Origin: Nitrosococcus oceani ATCC 19707
GTDB lineage: Bacteria > Pseudomonadota > Gammaproteobacteria > Nitrosococcales > Nitrosococcaceae
Length of the DNA: 32,000 nucleotides
Assembly (NCBI RefSeq): GCF_000012805.1
Contig: NC_007484.1
Span: forward strand, 1,620,001-1,652,000
Direction of reading: 5' to 3'
Shown: positions 1,788-12,594 of the stretch, piece by piece
Layout: each line of letters starts with the position of its first letter
How positions within the stretch are numbered: position 1 is the first letter of the stretch
Notes under the pieces: model-generated
Seen by the model: only the letters and a program-made list of their open reading frames with translations
Told to the model about the DNA's origin: nothing
Databases searched by the model: none
Made by a program: the position numbers and the translations under genes

Positions 1788-4532
1788 ATGGCCATCAGTC
1801 AGGCACGCATTATCGAATCACTGGAGCAGGCTTGCTCCAACCTCAATCCTGATGAGTTCATTTTTTCCTTCCTCGATGCGTATGGCTTTCCCAAGAGCAC
1901 CATTACCCGGCTGCGCAAGGGTGGTGACAGCCGCAACGTGGCGGAAGGTGATGACATTGGTCTGAAGAAAAAGCTCTACTTCCGTGCTGTCTCAAAGGGT
2001 GCGGATCTCGATGCTGAGGTTGAATCGCTCAAGGCAAGCGAGGTGATCGCTCGCAATGACATCCGTTTCGTGATCGTGACCGATTTCGAAAGTCTGGCGG
2101 CATTCGATCTCAAGGCTGAGGAGCGTCTCGAAACCACCATGGATGAGCTGGACAAGCAGTACGCTTTCTTCCTGCCGCTGGCCGGATATGAGAAGGCTGT
2201 CATGTACTCTGAGCATCCGGCAGACGTAAAAGCTTCAGAGAAGATGGGCCAGCTGTTCGACCTAATTCGTGAACGTAATGACCTTTCCAAACCGGAGGAC
2301 ATTCATGCATTGAACGTCTTCCTGACGCGCCTGCTGTTCTGCTTCTATGCCGAGGACACTGGCATTTTTGAGCAGGGCCAGATGACTTCAGCGATCCAGT
2401 CCTGCACTCAGGAGGATGGTTCGGGTGTGGATCAGTTCTTCACCGACCTGTTCACAGTGCTGAACCTGGAACCAGACGCACCTGAGCGCAAGGACATGCC
2501 CGCCCATTTCCAGGCGTTCCCCTATGTGAACGGCGGCCTGCTCCGTGATGATGAGCCTATCCCTGAGTTTGGACGCAAAGCACGTCGAATTCTGCTGGAT
2601 TGTGGCTCTCTCAACTGGTCCGCGATTAACCCGGACATTTTTGGTTCTATGTTCCAGGCGGTTATTGATGAGGAGCAGCGTGGCAACCTGGGACAGCACT
2701 ATACCTCCGTATCGAACATCATGAAGGTGATCCAGCCGCTGTTCCTCGACAAGCTGTATGCCGAGCTTGAAAAGTCCCGCAAGCGTGATCGCAAGCTGAA
2801 AGAACTACTGATACGCCTTCAGAACCTACGTGTCTTTGACCCCGCCTGTGGTTCAGGCAACTTCCTGATCATTGCGTACAAGGAGCTGCGCAAGCTGGAG
2901 ATGGAAGTGATCGATGCTCTGAACGCGATATCCGATCAGGCTGAGATGTACTATTCCGGTATCCGCCTCTCCCAGTTCTACGGCATTGAAATTGACGATT
3001 TCGCCCATGAAGTCGCTACTCTTTCTCTGTGGTTGGCCGAACACCAAATGAATATGGCGTTTAAGGCTAAGTTTGGCTATGCCGAGGCGGCACTTCCGCT
3101 GCGGGATTCAGGCGATATCGTGTGTGGTAATGCGTTGCGCCTAGATTGGGAAGAAGTGTGCCCACCGGCTGATGGTAGTGGTAATCCTCGTGAAATCTAT
3201 ATCTGTGGTAATCCGCCTTTTTTAGGGACAACGGAGCGCAGTAAAGAGCAGTCGGCTGATATGAAGCATGTATTTTCATCTTTTAAGTCCATAGGCTATC
3301 TCGACATCGTAGCCGCCTGGTTTTGGAAAGGGGCGAACTTTATCAAGGGGAGAAGAGCAAAATGTGCGCTGGTGTCCACGAACTCTATCAGCCAAGGCGA
3401 CCAAACCTCCTTGTTATGGCCGCCGATTTTTGAGCTGGGAGTTTCGATTGATTTCTGCTACCAGACATTTACGTGGAGTAACAACGCGAAGAATAAAGCC
3501 GCGGTCCATGTTGTCATCATTGGATTAAAGAATAACGAAGACACGTCTACGGTGCCACGAATATTTGAGACGTCCAGGGAGAAAACGACTGTACTGAAAG
3601 TAGATAACATCAGCCCATATCTAGTCCCCGGCCCAAATTTAGCGGTATATCCACGCACAAAGCCAATCGGTCCAGTCAGTAAAATGATTTTTGGCAACAA
3701 ACCAACAGACGGTGGCCACCTATACGTTACGCTAGAGGAACGTGATGAATTTATAGAAAAATACCCTCACTATGCCCACTGGATACGAAAAGTTCTGGGT
3801 TCAAAAGAGTTTATTAACGGGGGAGAGCGTTGGTGCTTCTGGCTGGCCCACATTCCGCTAGAGGATGTCATGAATGTTCCAGAAATGGTTTCTCGTGTAG
3901 AGAAAATTCGTGATCTCAGGATCAAAGCTGGACATCCAGCCGCTCTTAAAGGTGCTGAGCGCCCTCACACATTTCTTCAGTTGGCTCAACCATTGAAGGG
4001 CAATTACTTACTGGTTCCTCGTGTTTCTTCAGAGCGACGTAGCTATGTTCCTATGGGATTTTATGGTGTTGATACCATATCTAGCGACGCGAACCAGATG
4101 GTTCCAAACGCCACTCCCTACGAATTCGGCATCCTTACATCCGAAATGCATAATGATTGGATGCGTACCGTTGCTGGCCGCCTGAAAAGCGACTACCGCT
4201 ATTCAGCCACACTGGTCTACAACACCTTCCCCTGGCCTGAAGTGACCGATGAGCAACGCAAGCACATCGAAGAGTTGGCCGAGGAGATCCTACTGATCCG
4301 CGAGGACTACCCCGACAAGTCGCTGGCTGACCTCTACGATCCGGACAAAATGCCTGCTCCGCTTCGTGAGGCCCACAAATCTCTGGACCGTGCTGTTGAA
4401 AAACTATACCGAGACAAACCTTTCAGGGATGCACCAGAGCGTCTGGAGCACCTGTTTGCCCGTTATGAAAAATTGATTGCCGAAGAGAAGGCAAAAGCAC
4501 CCGCCAAAAAGAAAGCCACAAGGAGTAAGTGA
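1788..4532 (+). CDS. MmeI-family (Type IIL/IIG-like) N6-adenine DNA methyltransferase with TRD; N-terminal nuclease motif apparently degenerate
   Basis: 914 aa, close to MmeI length, and collinear with MmeI as I remember it: LTRLLFCFYAEDTGIF, FPYVNGGLL, NWSAINPDIFGSMFQ, GQHYTS, SAM motif I VFDPACGSGNFLI, catalytic motif IV GNPPFLG, STNSISQGDQ, FGNKPTDGGHL, YRYSATLVYNTFPWP and LYDPDKMP. AAGGAG RBS precedes ATG 1788. Confidence 0.92.
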   Translation: MAISQARIIESLEQACSNLNPDEFIFSFLDAYGFPKSTITRLRKGGDSRNVAEGDDIGLKKKLYFRAVSKGADLDAEVESLKASEVIARNDIRFVIVTDFESLAAFDLKAEERLETTMDELDKQYAFFLPLAGYEKAVMYSEHPADVKASEKMGQLFDLIRERNDLSKPEDIHALNVFLTRLLFCFYAEDTGIFEQGQMTSAIQSCTQEDGSGVDQFFTDLFTVLNLEPDAPERKDMPAHFQAFPYVNGGLLRDDEPIPEFGRKARRILLDCGSLNWSAINPDIFGSMFQAVIDEEQRGNLGQHYTSVSNIMKVIQPLFLDKLYAELEKSRKRDRKLKELLIRLQNLRVFDPACGSGNFLIIAYKELRKLEMEVIDALNAISDQAEMYYSGIRLSQFYGIEIDDFAHEVATLSLWLAEHQMNMAFKAKFGYAEAALPLRDSGDIVCGNALRLDWEEVCPPADGSGNPREIYICGNPPFLGTTERSKEQSADMKHVFSSFKSIGYLDIVAAWFWKGANFIKGRRAKCALVSTNSISQGDQTSLLWPPIFELGVSIDFCYQTFTWSNNAKNKAAVHVVIIGLKNNEDTSTVPRIFETSREKTTVLKVDNISPYLVPGPNLAVYPRTKPIGPVSKMIFGNKPTDGGHLYVTLEERDEFIEKYPHYAHWIRKVLGSKEFINGGERWCFWLAHIPLEDVMNVPEMVSRVEKIRDLRIKAGHPAALKGAERPHTFLQLAQPLKGNYLLVPRVSSERRSYVPMGFYGVDTISSDANQMVPNATPYEFGILTSEMHNDWMRTVAGRLKSDYRYSATLVYNTFPWPEVTDEQRKHIEELAEEILLIREDYPDKSLADLYDPDKMPAPLREAHKSLDRAVEKLYRDKPFRDAPERLEHLFARYEKLIAEEKAKAPAKKKATRSK

Positions 4533-4534
4533 TC

Positions 4535-6586
4535 ATGGCTGATCTGTTGACCGTTCAATACAAGCAAACTGGCAGGAGTTCTAACCTGAATGCGATGGGC
4601 ATGCGTGAAATGCAGGCCCGTGCCTATGAGGCCCGTGATGCCCAATATCTGCTGCTGAAGGCACCGCCGGCCTCCGGTAAGTCTCGCGCCCTGATGTTCC
4701 TAGGACTGGATAAGTTGCATAACCAGGGGCTGAAGAAAGTCATCGTGGCCGTGCCGGAAATGAGCATCGGCGCTTCATTCAAGGACACCCACCTGACCAG
4801 TAGTGGCTTCTTTACCGATTGGGCCGTGCAGCCGAGCTATAACCTCTGTGTGCCTGGTGGTGAAACGCAGAAGGTGAAAGCCTTTGTTCGCTTCATGTCC
4901 GACCCGGATGCCAATGTGCTGGTATGTACCCATGCCACGCTGCGCTTTGCCTACCAGGAGCTGAAACCGGCTGATTTCAATGACGCCCTGTTGGCGATTG
5001 ACGAGTTCCACCACACCTCAGCCGATGGTGAGAACCGTCTGGGTGGTCTGATAGATGGTGTGATGGCCGGCTCTAACGCCCACATCGTTGCCATGACAGG
5101 TTCCTATTTCCGGGGCGATGCGGTACCTATCCTGCTGCCAGAGGACGAGGAGAAATTCACTCAGGTCACGTACTCTTACTATGAGCAGTTGAACGGCTAC
5201 CAGCATCTCAAATCACTGGGCATCGGCTATCACTTCTACACGGGGCGTTACCTCGATGCATTGCATGAGGTGTTGGACACCTCGAAAAAGACCATCGTCC
5301 ATATTCCGAACGTGAACTCGGTTGAATCCACCAAGGATAAGCTGTCTGAGGTTGATTACATTCTGGATGCCATCGGTGACGTGATCGAGAAGGACATGAA
5401 GACCGGCATCATCACGGTCAAGGATGATACTGGCCGGATACTTAAAGTGGCGGATCTGGTGGATGACGGTCCTCTGCGGGTCGAGGTGCAGAACTACCTG
5501 CGCAATGTGTCCAAGGCCGACGATATGGACATCATCATTGCGTTGGGTATGGCCAAAGAGGGCTTCGACTGGCCCTGGTGCGAGCATGTGCTGACCATTG
5601 GCTATCGATCTTCCCTGACCGAGATTATCCAGATCATCGGCCGAGCCACCCGTGACTGTGAGGGTAAATCCCACGCTCAGTTCACCAATCTGATCGCCCA
5701 ACCGGATGCCGAGGACGATGACGTGAAAGTGTCAGTCAACAACATGCTGAAGGCGATTACCGTTTCTCTTCTGATGGAACAGGTATTGGCTCCTGCGGTG
5801 ATTTTTAAGCCTCGCTCGCGCATCCTCCCAGGCGAAGAGGTTAAGCCAGGTACTGTGGTGATTGAAGATACAACAGCGCCGGTATCCGACAAGGTAATCA
5901 AAGCTTTGGAGAACATGGACAATATCAAGGCAGCCATCCTCCAGAAGCCTGAAGTGGTTGCACCGGCTGTGACGGGAGATGCTGATCCAGAAGTCATGGA
6001 AGCGGTTGAGATCCCAAAAGTGGTCGAAAAACTGTACCCTGATATGGATGCCCAGGAACTACAGACCGTCTCCGAAGCTGTCCATGCGTCCATGGCGGTC
6101 CAGTCCACCGGTGGTCTGTTTGATGAATCGGAGCTGCCCGAGGGGGCAGAAATCATAGTGCCCTCAGGCGTGGAAGATGAGGCTCCAGCCTATAAGTCCG
6201 ACACAAAAGCTGCACCGGAACCCGGTCAGAAGTCGCCTAACCGTAAGTTTGTCCTGATTGGCAACAAGTTCGTCAACATCGAATACCTAAATGTCGATCT
6301 GATCCGGCAAATCAACCCCTTCCAGGGCGCCTACGAAATCCTCTCGAAAGCGGTCACGCCGTCTGTATTGAAGACCATTCAGGACACGGTGGTGGGGATG
6401 CGCTCCCAAATATCTGAAGAGGAAGCTGTGATCCTCTGGCCGCGTATCAACGAGTTCAGAAAGGACAAGGGTCGCGAGCCTTCTGTCACAGCCAGCGATC
6501 CGTATGAGCGCCGGCTGGCCGATGCACTGGCCTACATCAAGCGTAAAGCGCAGGAACGCAAAGCTGCCCGGGCACAGACCGCATAA
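4535..6586 (+). CDS. SF2 DEAD/DEAH-like helicase with an acidic/Pro-rich linker and a small C-terminal helical module
   Basis: Walker A APPASGKS, motif Ia VIVAVPEMS, motif II AIDEFHH, motif III MTGSYFRGD, motif V region GMAKEGFDWP and motif VI QIIGRATR. AGGAG at 4521-4525 lies 9 nt before ATG 4535 (GTG 4529 is an alternative). The start lies 2 nt after the methylase stop. Confidence 0.9.
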   Translation: MADLLTVQYKQTGRSSNLNAMGMREMQARAYEARDAQYLLLKAPPASGKSRALMFLGLDKLHNQGLKKVIVAVPEMSIGASFKDTHLTSSGFFTDWAVQPSYNLCVPGGETQKVKAFVRFMSDPDANVLVCTHATLRFAYQELKPADFNDALLAIDEFHHTSADGENRLGGLIDGVMAGSNAHIVAMTGSYFRGDAVPILLPEDEEKFTQVTYSYYEQLNGYQHLKSLGIGYHFYTGRYLDALHEVLDTSKKTIVHIPNVNSVESTKDKLSEVDYILDAIGDVIEKDMKTGIITVKDDTGRILKVADLVDDGPLRVEVQNYLRNVSKADDMDIIIALGMAKEGFDWPWCEHVLTIGYRSSLTEIIQIIGRATRDCEGKSHAQFTNLIAQPDAEDDDVKVSVNNMLKAITVSLLMEQVLAPAVIFKPRSRILPGEEVKPGTVVIEDTTAPVSDKVIKALENMDNIKAAILQKPEVVAPAVTGDADPEVMEAVEIPKVVEKLYPDMDAQELQTVSEAVHASMAVQSTGGLFDESELPEGAEIIVPSGVEDEAPAYKSDTKAAPEPGQKSPNRKFVLIGNKFVNIEYLNVDLIRQINPFQGAYEILSKAVTPSVLKTIQDTVVGMRSQISEEEAVILWPRINEFRKDKGREPSVTASDPYERRLADALAYIKRKAQERKAARAQTA

Positions 6587-6597
6587 GGAGATGCAGG

Positions 6598-7932
6598 ATG
6601 CCACCCATCCATCATGATAGAAAAAAGGGCGTAGCGCGCCCTTCACTGGATGATATTTTCAATGGCCCGGATGAGTTCGGGCTTCTGAATGTTCAGGCAA
6701 AGCGATCCAGCGGTGGAAACCCGCTGGAAGTGGCCAAATTTGAAGAGATCAATACATTCATGGATCAGCATGGTAGAGCCCCTGAAAGTACAGGCAAGCT
6801 GTCAGAAAAGCTCTTGGCCAGGCGCTTAAAGGGCTACTTGGACAACCATGATCTGCATTCCACTCTGAAGCCTTATGATCGTCATGGCTTGCTTCCGGCG
6901 CCAACGTCGTTTGTAGACGAGGTTGATGCTTCTGATTTCGAACTGGACGAACAAACCCAGCCGGACAGTGAAGTGGAACAGGTTTCATCGGATGTGGTGG
7001 CAGATGCCGAGGATGTTACCTCCCTGGATGATATTTTTGCCAGTGAGGCATTTGCGGAGATCGATCAGGGGGAGCCTGCCCTCTTTGATTCTATCCATGT
7101 CCCGTTCAGTTCGGACCGAGAAGCGCCTGATGAGATAGCTCAGCGTCGTGTCTGCCAGGATTTCTATGCGTTTGAGCCGACCTTTCGTGACCTGCATGAG
7201 AAGCTCAAATCAGGTGACGCAAAGACAGTACGGTTCCAACAAGCCTCACAGGTACAGCCAGGCGATGCTTTCATACTGGAAGGCGTCGTATGCCTGATCG
7301 ATGAGGTTGGTGAGTATCGAGAAGATAACCAGGGGCGATACGACCCTAGGCTGCGCGTGATTTTTGAGAACGGAACGGAGTCCAACCATCTTCTGCAATC
7401 ATTAGCCAAGCGACTTTACCAGGATGAGACGGGACGCCGGATCATCCGTGAGGCCGACTCAGTGGTTGATGCTTTCAACAACGTATCCCATAAGGACAAG
7501 CGGGTCGGGCAGATCTACTTCGTCACCACCAGGAGCGAAAACCCTGATCTGAAGGCGATTCCGAACCTGGTTAAGATTGGTTATACCGAGCTTACGGTCG
7601 AAGAGCGGACGAAAAATGCTGAGCGGGACACTGCTTTCCTGGAAGCACCGGTCAAGATCCTTGCTTCGATGGAGTGCTACAACCTGAACCCCAACAAGTT
7701 CGAAAGCCTGATTCATGGGTTTCTGTATGCACAGCGGTTGAAGGTGGCGTTGATCGGGAAAGACGGGAAAGCCTATCACCCGAAAGAGTGGTTTTCCGTT
7801 CCTTTGGATACAGCAAGGGAAGTCGTTAAACGGATCATTGATGGCAGCATCGTCCATTACCGGATGGACAACACCACTGGACGGTTGGTGAAGAAAAGGA
7901 TTGGTTCGATCTGCATCCCGAACCGCGCTTAA
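6598..7932 (+). CDS. T5orf172-domain (GIY-YIG superfamily) putative nuclease with a long acidic N-terminal region
   Basis: The C-terminal ~120 aa read GQIYFVTT...LVKIGYTELTVEERTK...ESLIHGFLYAQR...KEWFSVPLD. This matches the GxIY / KIGxT / R / E..(I/L)H / EWF pattern of T5orf172. AGGAG lies 7 nt before ATG 6598, and the gene follows the helicase stop by 11 nt. Confidence 0.85.
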   Translation: MPPIHHDRKKGVARPSLDDIFNGPDEFGLLNVQAKRSSGGNPLEVAKFEEINTFMDQHGRAPESTGKLSEKLLARRLKGYLDNHDLHSTLKPYDRHGLLPAPTSFVDEVDASDFELDEQTQPDSEVEQVSSDVVADAEDVTSLDDIFASEAFAEIDQGEPALFDSIHVPFSSDREAPDEIAQRRVCQDFYAFEPTFRDLHEKLKSGDAKTVRFQQASQVQPGDAFILEGVVCLIDEVGEYREDNQGRYDPRLRVIFENGTESNHLLQSLAKRLYQDETGRRIIREADSVVDAFNNVSHKDKRVGQIYFVTTRSENPDLKAIPNLVKIGYTELTVEERTKNAERDTAFLEAPVKILASMECYNLNPNKFESLIHGFLYAQRLKVALIGKDGKAYHPKEWFSVPLDTAREVVKRIIDGSIVHYRMDNTTGRLVKKRIGSICIPNRA

Positions 7933-11477: not shown

Positions 11478-11513
11478 TGTTGCTTAACCTTTATTGTGTT
11501 ACAATACGTTTCT

Positions 11514-12594
11514 ATGTTAACACAACGCGCCTACAAGTTCAGGTTTTACCCCACGCCCACGCAAAGGCGGCAATTGGCCCTTGAGTTTGGCCATGCCCGG
11601 TGGGCCTGGAATACCTGTTTAGTCTGGCGGGGTCGTCAATATAGGGTGCATGACAAGCGCGTTAGCGGTGTTGATTTTAGTCGTCAACTCACGTTTCTAA
11701 AAAAACTAGGGCCTTACGCGTGGCTGGGCGAGGCGAGCGCGACTTGCTTGGCTCAAAACGCAATCGGTACGCTATCAGTTGGATCAGCGTCACGTAGCGA
11801 AGAACTTCAACGCTGAAAGCAAGCGTTTGAAGCTGCCCAAGCTTGGAGCGCTGAAGCTCAAGTGGTCCCGTGAGGTGGGCGGTATTCCCAAAATGGTGAC
11901 GGTGAATAAAGACCCTTGCGGTCATTATTTCATTAGCATGGCCTGTGAGGTAGAAATTCTCCCCTTGCCTACCCGCAAAAACGCGATTGGCGTGGATGTG
12001 GGCGTCAAGGATGTGGTCATCACTTCCGAGGGGTATAAATCCGGTGCGCCTAAGTACACTTATCGCTATGCTCGGCAATTGAAAATGGCGCAGCGGCGCT
12101 TGAGCAAGAAGCCTAAAGGTTCGGGGCGGCGGCGCAACCAGCAACAGCGCGTCGCTCGAATTCATGCCCGGATAGCGGATAGCCGCCGGGATTTTTTGCA
12201 CCAACAGTCCTCGAAGCTGATTAACGAGAACCAAGTAATTTGTCTTGAGGACTTGAATATCAAAGGGATGTTGAGAAACCGACGCCTGAGCAGAGCCATT
12301 GCCGATGGTGGCTTGTATGAACTCAGGCGGCAAATGGAGTATAAAGCCTCATGGTATGGCCGTGATGTGTTGATCGTGGACCGTTGGGCGCCGACCAGTA
12401 AAACCTGCTCGGCCTGTGGCACGGTGATCGATACCATGCCGCTGAAGATTCGTGAGTGGGTTTGCCCTGATTGCACTGCCCACCACGATAGGGACATCAA
12501 CGCGGCTATCAATGTTTTGAGTTTTGGTACGGCGGGGAGCGCCGGAACCCACAAAGCGCGTGGAGCGGTGAAAACCCCAAGGGCCGTGGCCTAG
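11514..12594 (+). pseudogene. tnpB: TnpB (IS605 OrfB-type RNA-guided nuclease), split by a frameshift near 11750-11820
   Basis: N-terminal piece: MLTQRAYKFRFYPTPTQRRQLALEFGHARWAWN. Second frame: LKLPKLGALKL..., RuvC-like D in IGVDVGVKD, E in VICLEDLN, zinc finger CSACG...CPDC, and D in HHDRDINAAINV. The two ORFs (11496-11816 and 11779-12594) overlap in different frames. Confidence 0.85.

Follow-up and report, generated by a model that had tools for sequence, protein, structure and literature searches.

An intact YeeA(DnmA)-YeeB-YeeC gene cluster in Nitrosococcus oceani ATCC 19707: a known family with a possible role in restriction-modification

Homologues of MmeI were divided by Morgan et al. 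2009 (PMC2731913) into two sets, one that has the PD-ExK nuclease motif and a second without it, whose members invariably have genes for a YeeB-like helicase and a YeeC-like GIY-YIG protein beside them. For this second set they proposed that the MmeI-like subunit supplies both specificity and protective modification, and that its N-terminal domain contacts the separate helicase and endonuclease, an arrangement that they called a Type I-like architecture with single-strand modification (PMC2731913). After this description of 2009 the triad was revisited in the literature of 2012, 2020, 2021 and 2023; the Type ISP paper of 2012 (PMC3553950) points to relatives with associated helicases and GIY-YIG nucleases, and the YeeABC genes are listed among defence-island genes (Makarova 2011, as cited in PMC9973331). 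Here we describe a three-gene operon from Nitrosococcus oceani ATCC 19707, situated at positions 1788–7932 of the window, which is the whole stretch of 32,000 nt that was analysed (contig NC_007484.1, positions 1,620,001 to 1,652,000) and to which all coordinates refer. The operon is an intact, ordinary member of the YeeA(DnmA)-YeeB-YeeC cluster and not a new system.

The assignment to the YeeABC family is based on the agreement in domain content, in the loss of ExK, in the identities with YeeB and YeeC and in gene order. Thus, gene 1 is highly MmeI-like beyond its first ~100 residues and has no PD-ExK, and it is followed directly downstream by a YeeB-like helicase gene and then by a YeeC-like T5orf172 gene, as in the second set of MmeI homologues. 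A first-pass annotation of this DNA, made from the sequence alone, had presented the triad as a candidate undescribed system; this does not stand, since the triad, the linkage of its genes and the same mechanism were published in 2009 (PMC2731913). It is true that no model for the triad exists in PADLOC-DB v2, that NCBIfam has no family for gene 2 or gene 3, and that no system name beyond the yee and dnmA gene names was found in the literature searched, from which much subscription content was absent. These are the points in favour of a previously undescribed and unnamed split class resembling Type ISP, to which we give practically no credence because its genes, their invariant synteny and the hypothesis on their function had all been published by Morgan et al. 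2009 (PMC2731913). The triad is therefore a known system in the sense of the literature, although PADLOC-DB v2 has not catalogued it. The features of the operon, given as coordinates, strand and description, are the following:

1788–4532, + strand, gene 1, open reading frame (ORF) of 914 aa
1788–2282, + strand, degenerate MmeI_N (former PD-ExK) domain, gene 1 residues 1–165 (MmeI_N match to residues 14–162)
2766–3545, + strand, methyltransferase catalytic domain, gene 1 residues 327–586 (Pfam and motifs)
3630–4241, + strand, target recognition domain (TRD), gene 1 residues 615–818 (MmeI_TRD, 7.5e-73)
4020–4199, + strand, TRD specificity residues R745, D767, A768, K800, D802 and R804 (5hr4 alignment)
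4521–4525, + strand, ribosome-binding site AGGAG of gene 2, within the end of gene 1 (direct reading)
4535–6586, + strand, gene 2, ORF of 683 aa, with an alternative start GTG at 4529
6586–6590, + strand, ribosome-binding site AGGAG of gene 3, sharing base 6586 with the end of the gene 2 stop codon (direct reading)
6598–7932, + strand, gene 3, ORF of 444 aa, with stop TAA at 7930–7932
7507–7797, + strand, GIY-YIG-type core of gene 3: G304-x-x-Y307 (GIY), K326-I-G328-Y-T (YIG), R337, N362, E369, H373 and E397-W-F (conservation)

The three genes are co-directional and nearly abut, and direct reading confirmed every coordinate that the first-pass annotation had given for their junctions: the TGA of gene 1 (4530–4532) lies 2 nt 5′ of the ATG of gene 2 (4535), and the TAA of gene 2 (6584–6586) is followed by the ATG of gene 3 at 6598. 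The choice of ATG 4535 as the start of gene 2 is supported by the helicase homologues, which begin with M-A/E/P-D/N. The same three products appear in the public gene calls on the identical contig BJWX01000004.1 (assembly GCA_007990675.1). The G+C content of the triad (0.48–0.53) is below that of the downstream pirin, GST and DUF5996 genes (0.57–0.59), which fits horizontal acquisition. Flanking direct repeats and tRNA genes were sought as island boundaries, and none were found; a promoter scan gave 4 matches, against 5.8 expected in shuffled sequence, and did not locate the promoter.

Gene 1 is predicted to encode a YeeA/DnmA-type, MmeI-family gamma-class N6-adenine DNA methyltransferase (MTase) with a fused TRD. 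Its product matches five Pfam MmeI domains, MmeI_N (4e-24), MmeI_hel, MmeI_Mtase (2.6e-105), MmeI_TRD and MmeI_C, and aligns over residues 63–899 with the sequence of the MmeI structure 5hr4 (E 9e-212). Motif I (FDPACGSGNFL, residues 350–360) is retained in 52/55 aligned homologues of gene 1, and motif IV (GNPPF, residues 474–478) occurs as NPP[YF] in 55/56. In the alignment with 5hr4, residues E80-M-K82 of MmeI lie opposite R66-A-V68 of gene 1; with E80 and K82 thus replaced by R66 and V68, the ExK half of PD-ExK is lost, and the position reads F-[K/R]-x, never ExK, in the 57 homologues aligned. The full MmeI architecture devoid of its nuclease motif, as first noticed from the sequence, is hence borne out by the five domains and by the replaced ExK. 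The degenerate MmeI_N domain has 12 columns conserved in at least 95 % of the sequences (F24, L29, R93, D107, F127, F128, P130, G133, E135, D146, A149 and N164) and probably plays a docking or communication role rather than that of a nuclease, a suggestion in which we follow Morgan et al. 2009 (PMC2731913).

The PADLOC library matches gene 1 end to end with the model REase_MTase_IIG PDLC03598 (1035 bits), whereas the match to MTase_I reaches only 20 bits, and it contains no dedicated models for genes 2 and 3, which gave weak PbeA and PDC-S57 matches only. Taken at face value, this would make gene 1 a stand-alone Type IIG/IIL enzyme and genes 2 and 3 its unrelated neighbours. We consider this very improbable: ExK is replaced in gene 1 and absent in 57/57 homologues, YeeA and MslORFHP alone showed no endonuclease activity (PMC2731913), and the synteny with genes 2 and 3 is invariant in every locus that could be assessed, as described below.

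Gene 2 codes for a putative YeeB-type superfamily 2 (SF2) helicase/translocase, consisting of RecA1 (residues 1–215), RecA2 (about 216–425), a variable acidic region (426–570) and a conserved C-terminal domain (571–683). All the SF2 motor motifs that had been pointed out in it were read at their places, GKS at residues 48–50, DEFH at 156–159, MTGS at 187–190 and GRATR at 369–373. Pfam DEAD, Helicase_C and ResIII also match, so that the proposed search with the last two was positive, but the matches are weak. Across 80 helicases from many phyla, 208 columns of gene 2 are at least 95 % conserved, and the protein is up to about 90 % identical to many database entries. By BLASTP it shows 59.5 % identity over its full length with YeeB from Vibrio crassostreae and 53 % with that from Bacillus subtilis (E 0); the YeeB and YeeC references from both organisms were machine-read from FIG S5 of PMC9973331 and may contain small errors, their homology being certain. 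Searches of PDB with sequence and profile retrieved no informative relative and nothing beyond generic SF2 proteins, the best sequence matches being those to LlaBIII (E 0.0027) and LlaGI (E 0.016), over ~85 residues of RecA2 only. Pfam and PDB sequence searches revealed no nuclease domain in gene 2. The AlphaFold2 model, built from an alignment of 31 sequences, had a predicted local distance difference test score (pLDDT) of 56 and gave generic SF2 fold matches, with EcoR124I HsdR among the top ones at a template modelling (TM) score of about 0.2, from which we draw no conclusion.

The product of gene 3 is predicted to be a YeeC-type protein, with BLASTP identities of 41 % to YeeC from V. crassostreae (E 1e-91) and 34 % to that from B. 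subtilis (E 6e-60). It comprises an N-terminal helical domain (about residues 20–100), an acidic linker (101–140), a beta-rich middle domain (about 141–300) and a C-terminal T5orf172/GIY-YIG domain (304–420); among 73 homologues the helical and middle domains are conserved and the acidic linker between them is variable. Pfam T5orf172 (2.5e-11) and MUG113 (9.7e-15) match residues 305–413, and the motifs GQIYFV (304–309), KIGYT (326–330) and EWF (397–399) lie where expected, in agreement with the T5orf172 domain recognised in the first-pass annotation. Likewise, the hidden Markov model searches that it had proposed gave matches of MmeI_N, Mtase, TRD and C to gene 1 and of T5orf172 to gene 3. The features of the GIY-YIG superfamily are present in gene 3, namely GIY, YIG (with an invariant Y329), a conserved arginine (R337) and the metal-binding glutamate (E397); in the same 73 homologues G304 is found in 71/73, N362 in 69/73, H373 in 72/73 and the remaining core residues in 73/73. 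From this conservation we infer that the core would be catalytically competent. The AlphaFold2 model of gene 3 (also from a 31-sequence alignment) had a pLDDT of 59, with values of about 80–89 only at residues 41–100 and 180–285, and a search of PDB folds with it yielded nothing below E 0.014; there were weak SH3-like matches (eIF5A/EF-P domain I) to the middle domain, on which no conclusion is drawn. Sequence and profile searches of PDB did not retrieve an informative relative of gene 3.

The hexapeptide SLDDIF occurs twice in gene 3, at residues 16–21 (6643–6659), before the helical domain, and at residues 142–147 (7021–7037), just after the acidic linker. Both copies form a 17-nt direct repeat that is 94 % identical, and several of their columns are invariant or near-invariant (L17, D19 and I20 in the first; S142, L143, D145 and I146 in the second). 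Through this short motif the protein may dock onto the helicase or the methylase.

The distribution of the triad was examined by scanning one genome per species with the helicase alignment, which revealed a relative in at least 582 stretches; the 80 loci that were kept span Proteobacteria, Bacteroidota, Firmicutes, Actinomycetota, Planctomycetota, Spirochaetota, Campylobacterota, Melainabacteria and candidate-phyla-radiation bacteria. In tblastn searches with the window proteins, each of the 48 loci that had 6 kb or more of sequence upstream of the helicase (48/48) contained a same-strand homologue of gene 1 there, and in each of the 69 loci that had 1.4 kb or more downstream (69/69) the helicase was followed directly by a homologue of gene 3, the intervening gap measuring −19 to +420 nt. 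The test of co-occurrence that the first-pass annotation had suggested was thus positive in all the assessable loci. Within Escherichia coli, a helicase relative is present in 100/5,426 complete genomes (~2 %), and four diverged loci from this species have the order MTase, helicase, GIY-YIG and adjoin integrases or P4-like modules with DUF927, Icd and Ash. Helicase relatives also occur on 232 plasmids from PLSDB, 118 of them conjugative, and the conjugative plasmid pAsa4 of Aeromonas salmonicida carries the whole triad in the same order; phage records contain almost none. The synteny in 48/48 and 69/69 loci, extending to E. coli and pAsa4, indicates that the three genes behave as one functional unit.

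In E. coli strains ECCHD184 (L001, 1–4330) and MRE162 (L003, 9224–13202) the triad is situated in P4-like elements with integrase, Ash, Icd-like, DUF4222 and DUF927 primase genes, and in ECCHD184 the cassette, together with an ISL3 transposase, interrupts a copy of the lspA gene. P4-like satellites are a class of elements known to carry hotspots of anti-phage systems.

Passenger genes occupying 0.5–6 kb separate the MTase from the helicase in 19/48 loci. They include RhuM (8 loci) and Schlafen AlbA_2 with HATPase_c_4 (6 loci), besides Fic/DOC with a winged helix-turn-helix domain, PDDEXK_3, Bro-N, helix-turn-helix (HTH) with an IrrE/M78 peptidase, and an extra SF2 helicase. Genes of the same kinds are typical inside Type I restriction-modification (R-M) operons. 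Examples of such passengers between the gene 1 and gene 2 homologues are:

5557–6998 of locus L019
5166–6833 of locus L057
6114–6809 of locus L045

The junction between genes 2 and 3 was never interrupted in the related loci, which suggests that the helicase and the GIY-YIG protein form a tighter unit.

Taking these data together, we think it reasonably probable that the operon encodes an active, ATP-dependent and MTase-dependent R-M system resembling Type I and Type ISP. In such a system, the product of gene 1 would recognise a short asymmetric site and methylate the host DNA; at unmethylated sites it would recruit or license the motor encoded by gene 2, possibly by way of its own degenerate N-terminal domain; this motor would then translocate on double-stranded DNA, and the GIY-YIG domain of gene 3 would cut. 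We infer all of these steps, including their order from recognition through motor loading to cleavage. A division of labour in which the MTase-TRD marks, the motor translocates and the GIY-YIG protein cuts had also been put forward from the first reading of the sequence; it is reasonable and fits the synteny, but it is the mechanism of Morgan et al. 2009 and not an original one.

Several results are consistent with this R-M function. The near-invariance across phyla of residues in the MTase, the SF2 motor and the GIY-YIG core suggests that selection maintains the activity of each of the three proteins. Additionally, because restriction would need the MTase subunit for targeting, loss of the methylase would not be lethal, and the finding that deletion of dnmA caused no growth defect in B. 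subtilis (PMC7261158) fits MTase-dependent restriction. The resistance of V. crassostreae 7F1_18 to one phage subclade was attributed to yeeAB alone by Piel et al. (bioRxiv 10.1101/2021.05.05.442762), and deletion of dnmA or yeeB was reported to raise phage sensitivity in this species (PMC9973331).

Other observations weigh against it. The structure models of genes 2 and 3 are of too low a quality to strengthen the case, and the locus in the window is not a clear defence island. The T5orf172 domain was originally described as a DNA-binding domain, and its nuclease role here is putative. No biochemistry of cleavage, translocation or complex formation was found for any member of the family in the literature searched, with the same gap in subscription content, and YeeA and MslORFHP by themselves displayed no endonuclease activity (PMC2731913). 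In B. subtilis no restriction by the cluster was seen, whether of plasmid transformation or of three phages, and the authors of those studies regard it as a relic (PMC7261158, PMC9973331); phage genomes show no depletion of the DnmA site (PMC9973331), and the Vibrio evidence covers yeeA and yeeB, no need for yeeC being mentioned in the text consulted (bioRxiv 10.1101/2021.05.05.442762). The objection from B. subtilis is softened, but not removed, by the truncation of its proteins. YeeB and YeeC from this species lack C-terminal stretches (PMC9973331): in our alignments the match of YeeB (599 aa) ends at residue 638 of gene 2 and that of YeeC (382 aa) at residue 414 of gene 3. Conserved C-terminal ends are present in both the window and the Vibrio proteins, at ~639–683 in gene 2 (including E658, R660 and A662) and ~415–433 in gene 3 (including Y421, R422, D424, N425 and T426), and both of these tails are absent in B. 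subtilis. These conserved tails may be needed for activity.

The behaviour of the B. subtilis cluster, in which transformation was not restricted, phage protection was absent and N6-methyladenine (m6A) affected promoter activity (PMC7261158, PMC9973331), could also mean that gene 1 is an orphan or epigenetic methyltransferase, the sole working part and devoted to gene regulation, a role that has been proposed for B. subtilis DnmA, with genes 2 and 3 as dead restriction relics. The location of the operon among housekeeping-type genes (pirin, GST) would agree with this. We nevertheless judge it unlikely, since all three ORFs are full length and tightly coupled in translation, 208 columns of the helicase are near-invariant across phyla, and the catalytic residues of the GIY-YIG domain do not vary. 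A relic would decay, whereas the synteny is complete in 48/48 and 69/69 loci; the cassette also spreads on conjugative plasmids and islands, and the window copies retain the C-terminal segments and are more similar to the Vibrio copy, for which there is genetic evidence of activity.

A GIY-YIG domain acting as a monomer will typically nick a single strand at a time. This property would suit a defence marked by methylation but not operating by restriction, in which the helicase and the T5orf172 protein, instead of producing double-strand breaks coupled to translocation, block replication, nick or trigger abortive infection, following the logic of the bacteriophage exclusion (BREX) and defence island system associated with restriction-modification (DISARM) systems. 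Gene 1 indeed has partial similarity in PADLOC to the DrmMI and PglX methylases, the DnmA site is not depleted in phages (PMC9973331), and the Vibrio protection was specific to one phage subclade (bioRxiv 10.1101/2021.05.05.442762). This kind of defence also seems rather unlikely to us: none of the hallmark partners PglZ, BrxC or DrmA/B/C is present, the likeness to PglX and DrmMI is confined to the shared MTase and TRD folds, and the pattern of passengers and the diversifying TRD resemble those of Type I R-M loci.

The TRD is the least conserved domain of gene 1, its six specificity positions showing 37 combinations in 55 homologues, a diversity that is expected for a diversifying restriction specificity module. 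Residues R745, D767, A768, K800, D802 and R804 of gene 1 map onto E751, N773, A774, E806, R808 and R810 of MmeI, of which the variant E751R/N773D/E806K/R808D recognises TCGRAG (Morgan and Luyten, PMC2731914). Since gene 1 has the specificity residues of this TCGRAG-reading variant, G, R, A (the methylated base) and G are expected at positions 3–6. We therefore predict the site of gene 1 as 5′-NNGRAG-3′, with the A methylated on one strand only, by a code that was established on nuclease-active members of the MmeI family. DnmA from B. subtilis makes m6A at GACGAG, a site that likewise ends in GAG (PMC7261158, PMC9973331).

Comparison with described systems places the operon closest to other YeeABC clusters. 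That of B. subtilis has the same order of MTase, helicase and GIY-YIG/T5orf172 genes, an MTase-TRD without PD-ExK and the same proposed mechanism, but differs in the missing C-terminal segments of YeeB and YeeC, in its site (GACGAG versus the predicted NNGRAG) and in showing no restriction or defence. The yeeAB(C) genes of V. crassostreae 7F1_18 encode full-length forms and are the closest genetically supported member among the sequences compared; the host and presumably the recognition site are different, and the defence phenotype is that of the Vibrio copy, the window copy being known from its sequence. With MmeI and the Type IIL/IIG enzymes (5hr4) the operon shares the five aligned domains, a gamma-class N6-adenine MTase with a fused TRD, a TRD code that appears transferable and, probably, modification of a single strand. 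However, MmeI cuts alone through D70/E80/K82, about 20 bp from its site and without ATP, whereas the window encodes a helicase and a separate nuclease; membership of Type IIL/IIG (MmeI-type) was rejected, there being no PD-ExK and R-A-V in place of ExK.

The Type ISP enzymes LlaGI and LlaBIII likewise combine a nuclease, an SF2 motor and an MmeI-related MTase-TRD, with an asymmetric site and hemimethylation, but as a single polypeptide with an N-terminal Mrr/PD-ExK nuclease, whereas the window has three polypeptides and a GIY-YIG nuclease. Membership of Type ISP was rejected on account of the three ORFs, the GIY-YIG candidate nuclease and a helicase likeness of ~85 residues. What remains of the term split Type ISP-like, used in the first-pass annotation, is an analogy, given the weak helicase match (E 0.003–0.016, in RecA2) and a nuclease of a different superfamily. 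Type I R-M systems (EcoR124I HsdR/M/S) are similar in their separate subunits, ATP-dependent SF2 motor and passengers (RhuM, Fic, AlbA_2), and in the expected requirement of the MTase/specificity subunit for restriction. They differ from the window operon, which has no HsdS, a fused TRD, a contiguous asymmetric site, a motor separate from the nuclease and GIY-YIG instead of PD-ExK. This class was also rejected (no HsdS, no nuclease fused to gene 2, MTase_I only 20 bits), as were DISARM class 1 and BREX, for which no DrmA/B/C(D), PglZ, BrxC or BrxL was present, the neighbours being SNase, pirin and GST genes; genes 2 and 3 matched none of the BREX and DISARM models.

The surroundings of the operon contain a 52-aa ORF without family, upstream of the triad, the pirin, GST and DUF5996 genes downstream, and these further features:

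10–234, − strand, 74-aa ORF with a sub-threshold match to a FitA-like ribbon-helix-helix antitoxin (E 0.0024)
752–1204, − strand, nuclease of the SNase/thermonuclease family with an N-terminal signal-peptide-like sequence, MNKLILLFFLLPLAASA
11496–12594, IS605/IS200-family TnpB split over two frames
11496–11816, ORF of the split TnpB with HTH_OrfB_IS605
11779–12594, ORF of the split TnpB with OrfB_IS605 and a Cas12f1-like TNB

The SNase is probably secreted, judging from its N-terminus, rather than a defence nuclease, and no toxin partner for the 74-aa ORF was found within the window. The locus had been described as containing other defence debris, a view that is weakly supported at best: no restriction remnant was found, the antitoxin match is below threshold and the nuclease is the probably secreted SNase. 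The split TnpB is probably a frameshifted, decaying copy, and no TnpA was seen next to it.

The main value of this analysis is the removal of a false call of a new system for a triad that hundreds of species carry and that is also found on conjugative plasmids and in ~2 % of complete E. coli genomes. In a PADLOC annotation, gene 1 would be called Type IIG and genes 2 and 3 would be passed over, so that pipelines mislabel such loci as stand-alone Type IIG. The genetic results on the family conflict, the cluster being inactive in B. subtilis and protective in Vibrio, and there is no structure of YeeB or YeeC. On balance, we lean slightly towards the YeeABC cassette being a mechanistically distinct class of ATP-dependent restriction that combines a hemimethylating MmeI-type MTase-TRD carrying a dead-nuclease coupling module with a free-standing, extremely conserved SF2 motor and a separate GIY-YIG nuclease that has two additional conserved domains and the duplicated SLDDIF. 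In that case it is the mechanism, rather than the discovery, that would be novel, the class having been predicted since 2009, and the full-length copy of the window, comparable to the genetically active one of Vibrio and with a predictable site (NNGRAG), would be a good candidate for its first biochemical description.

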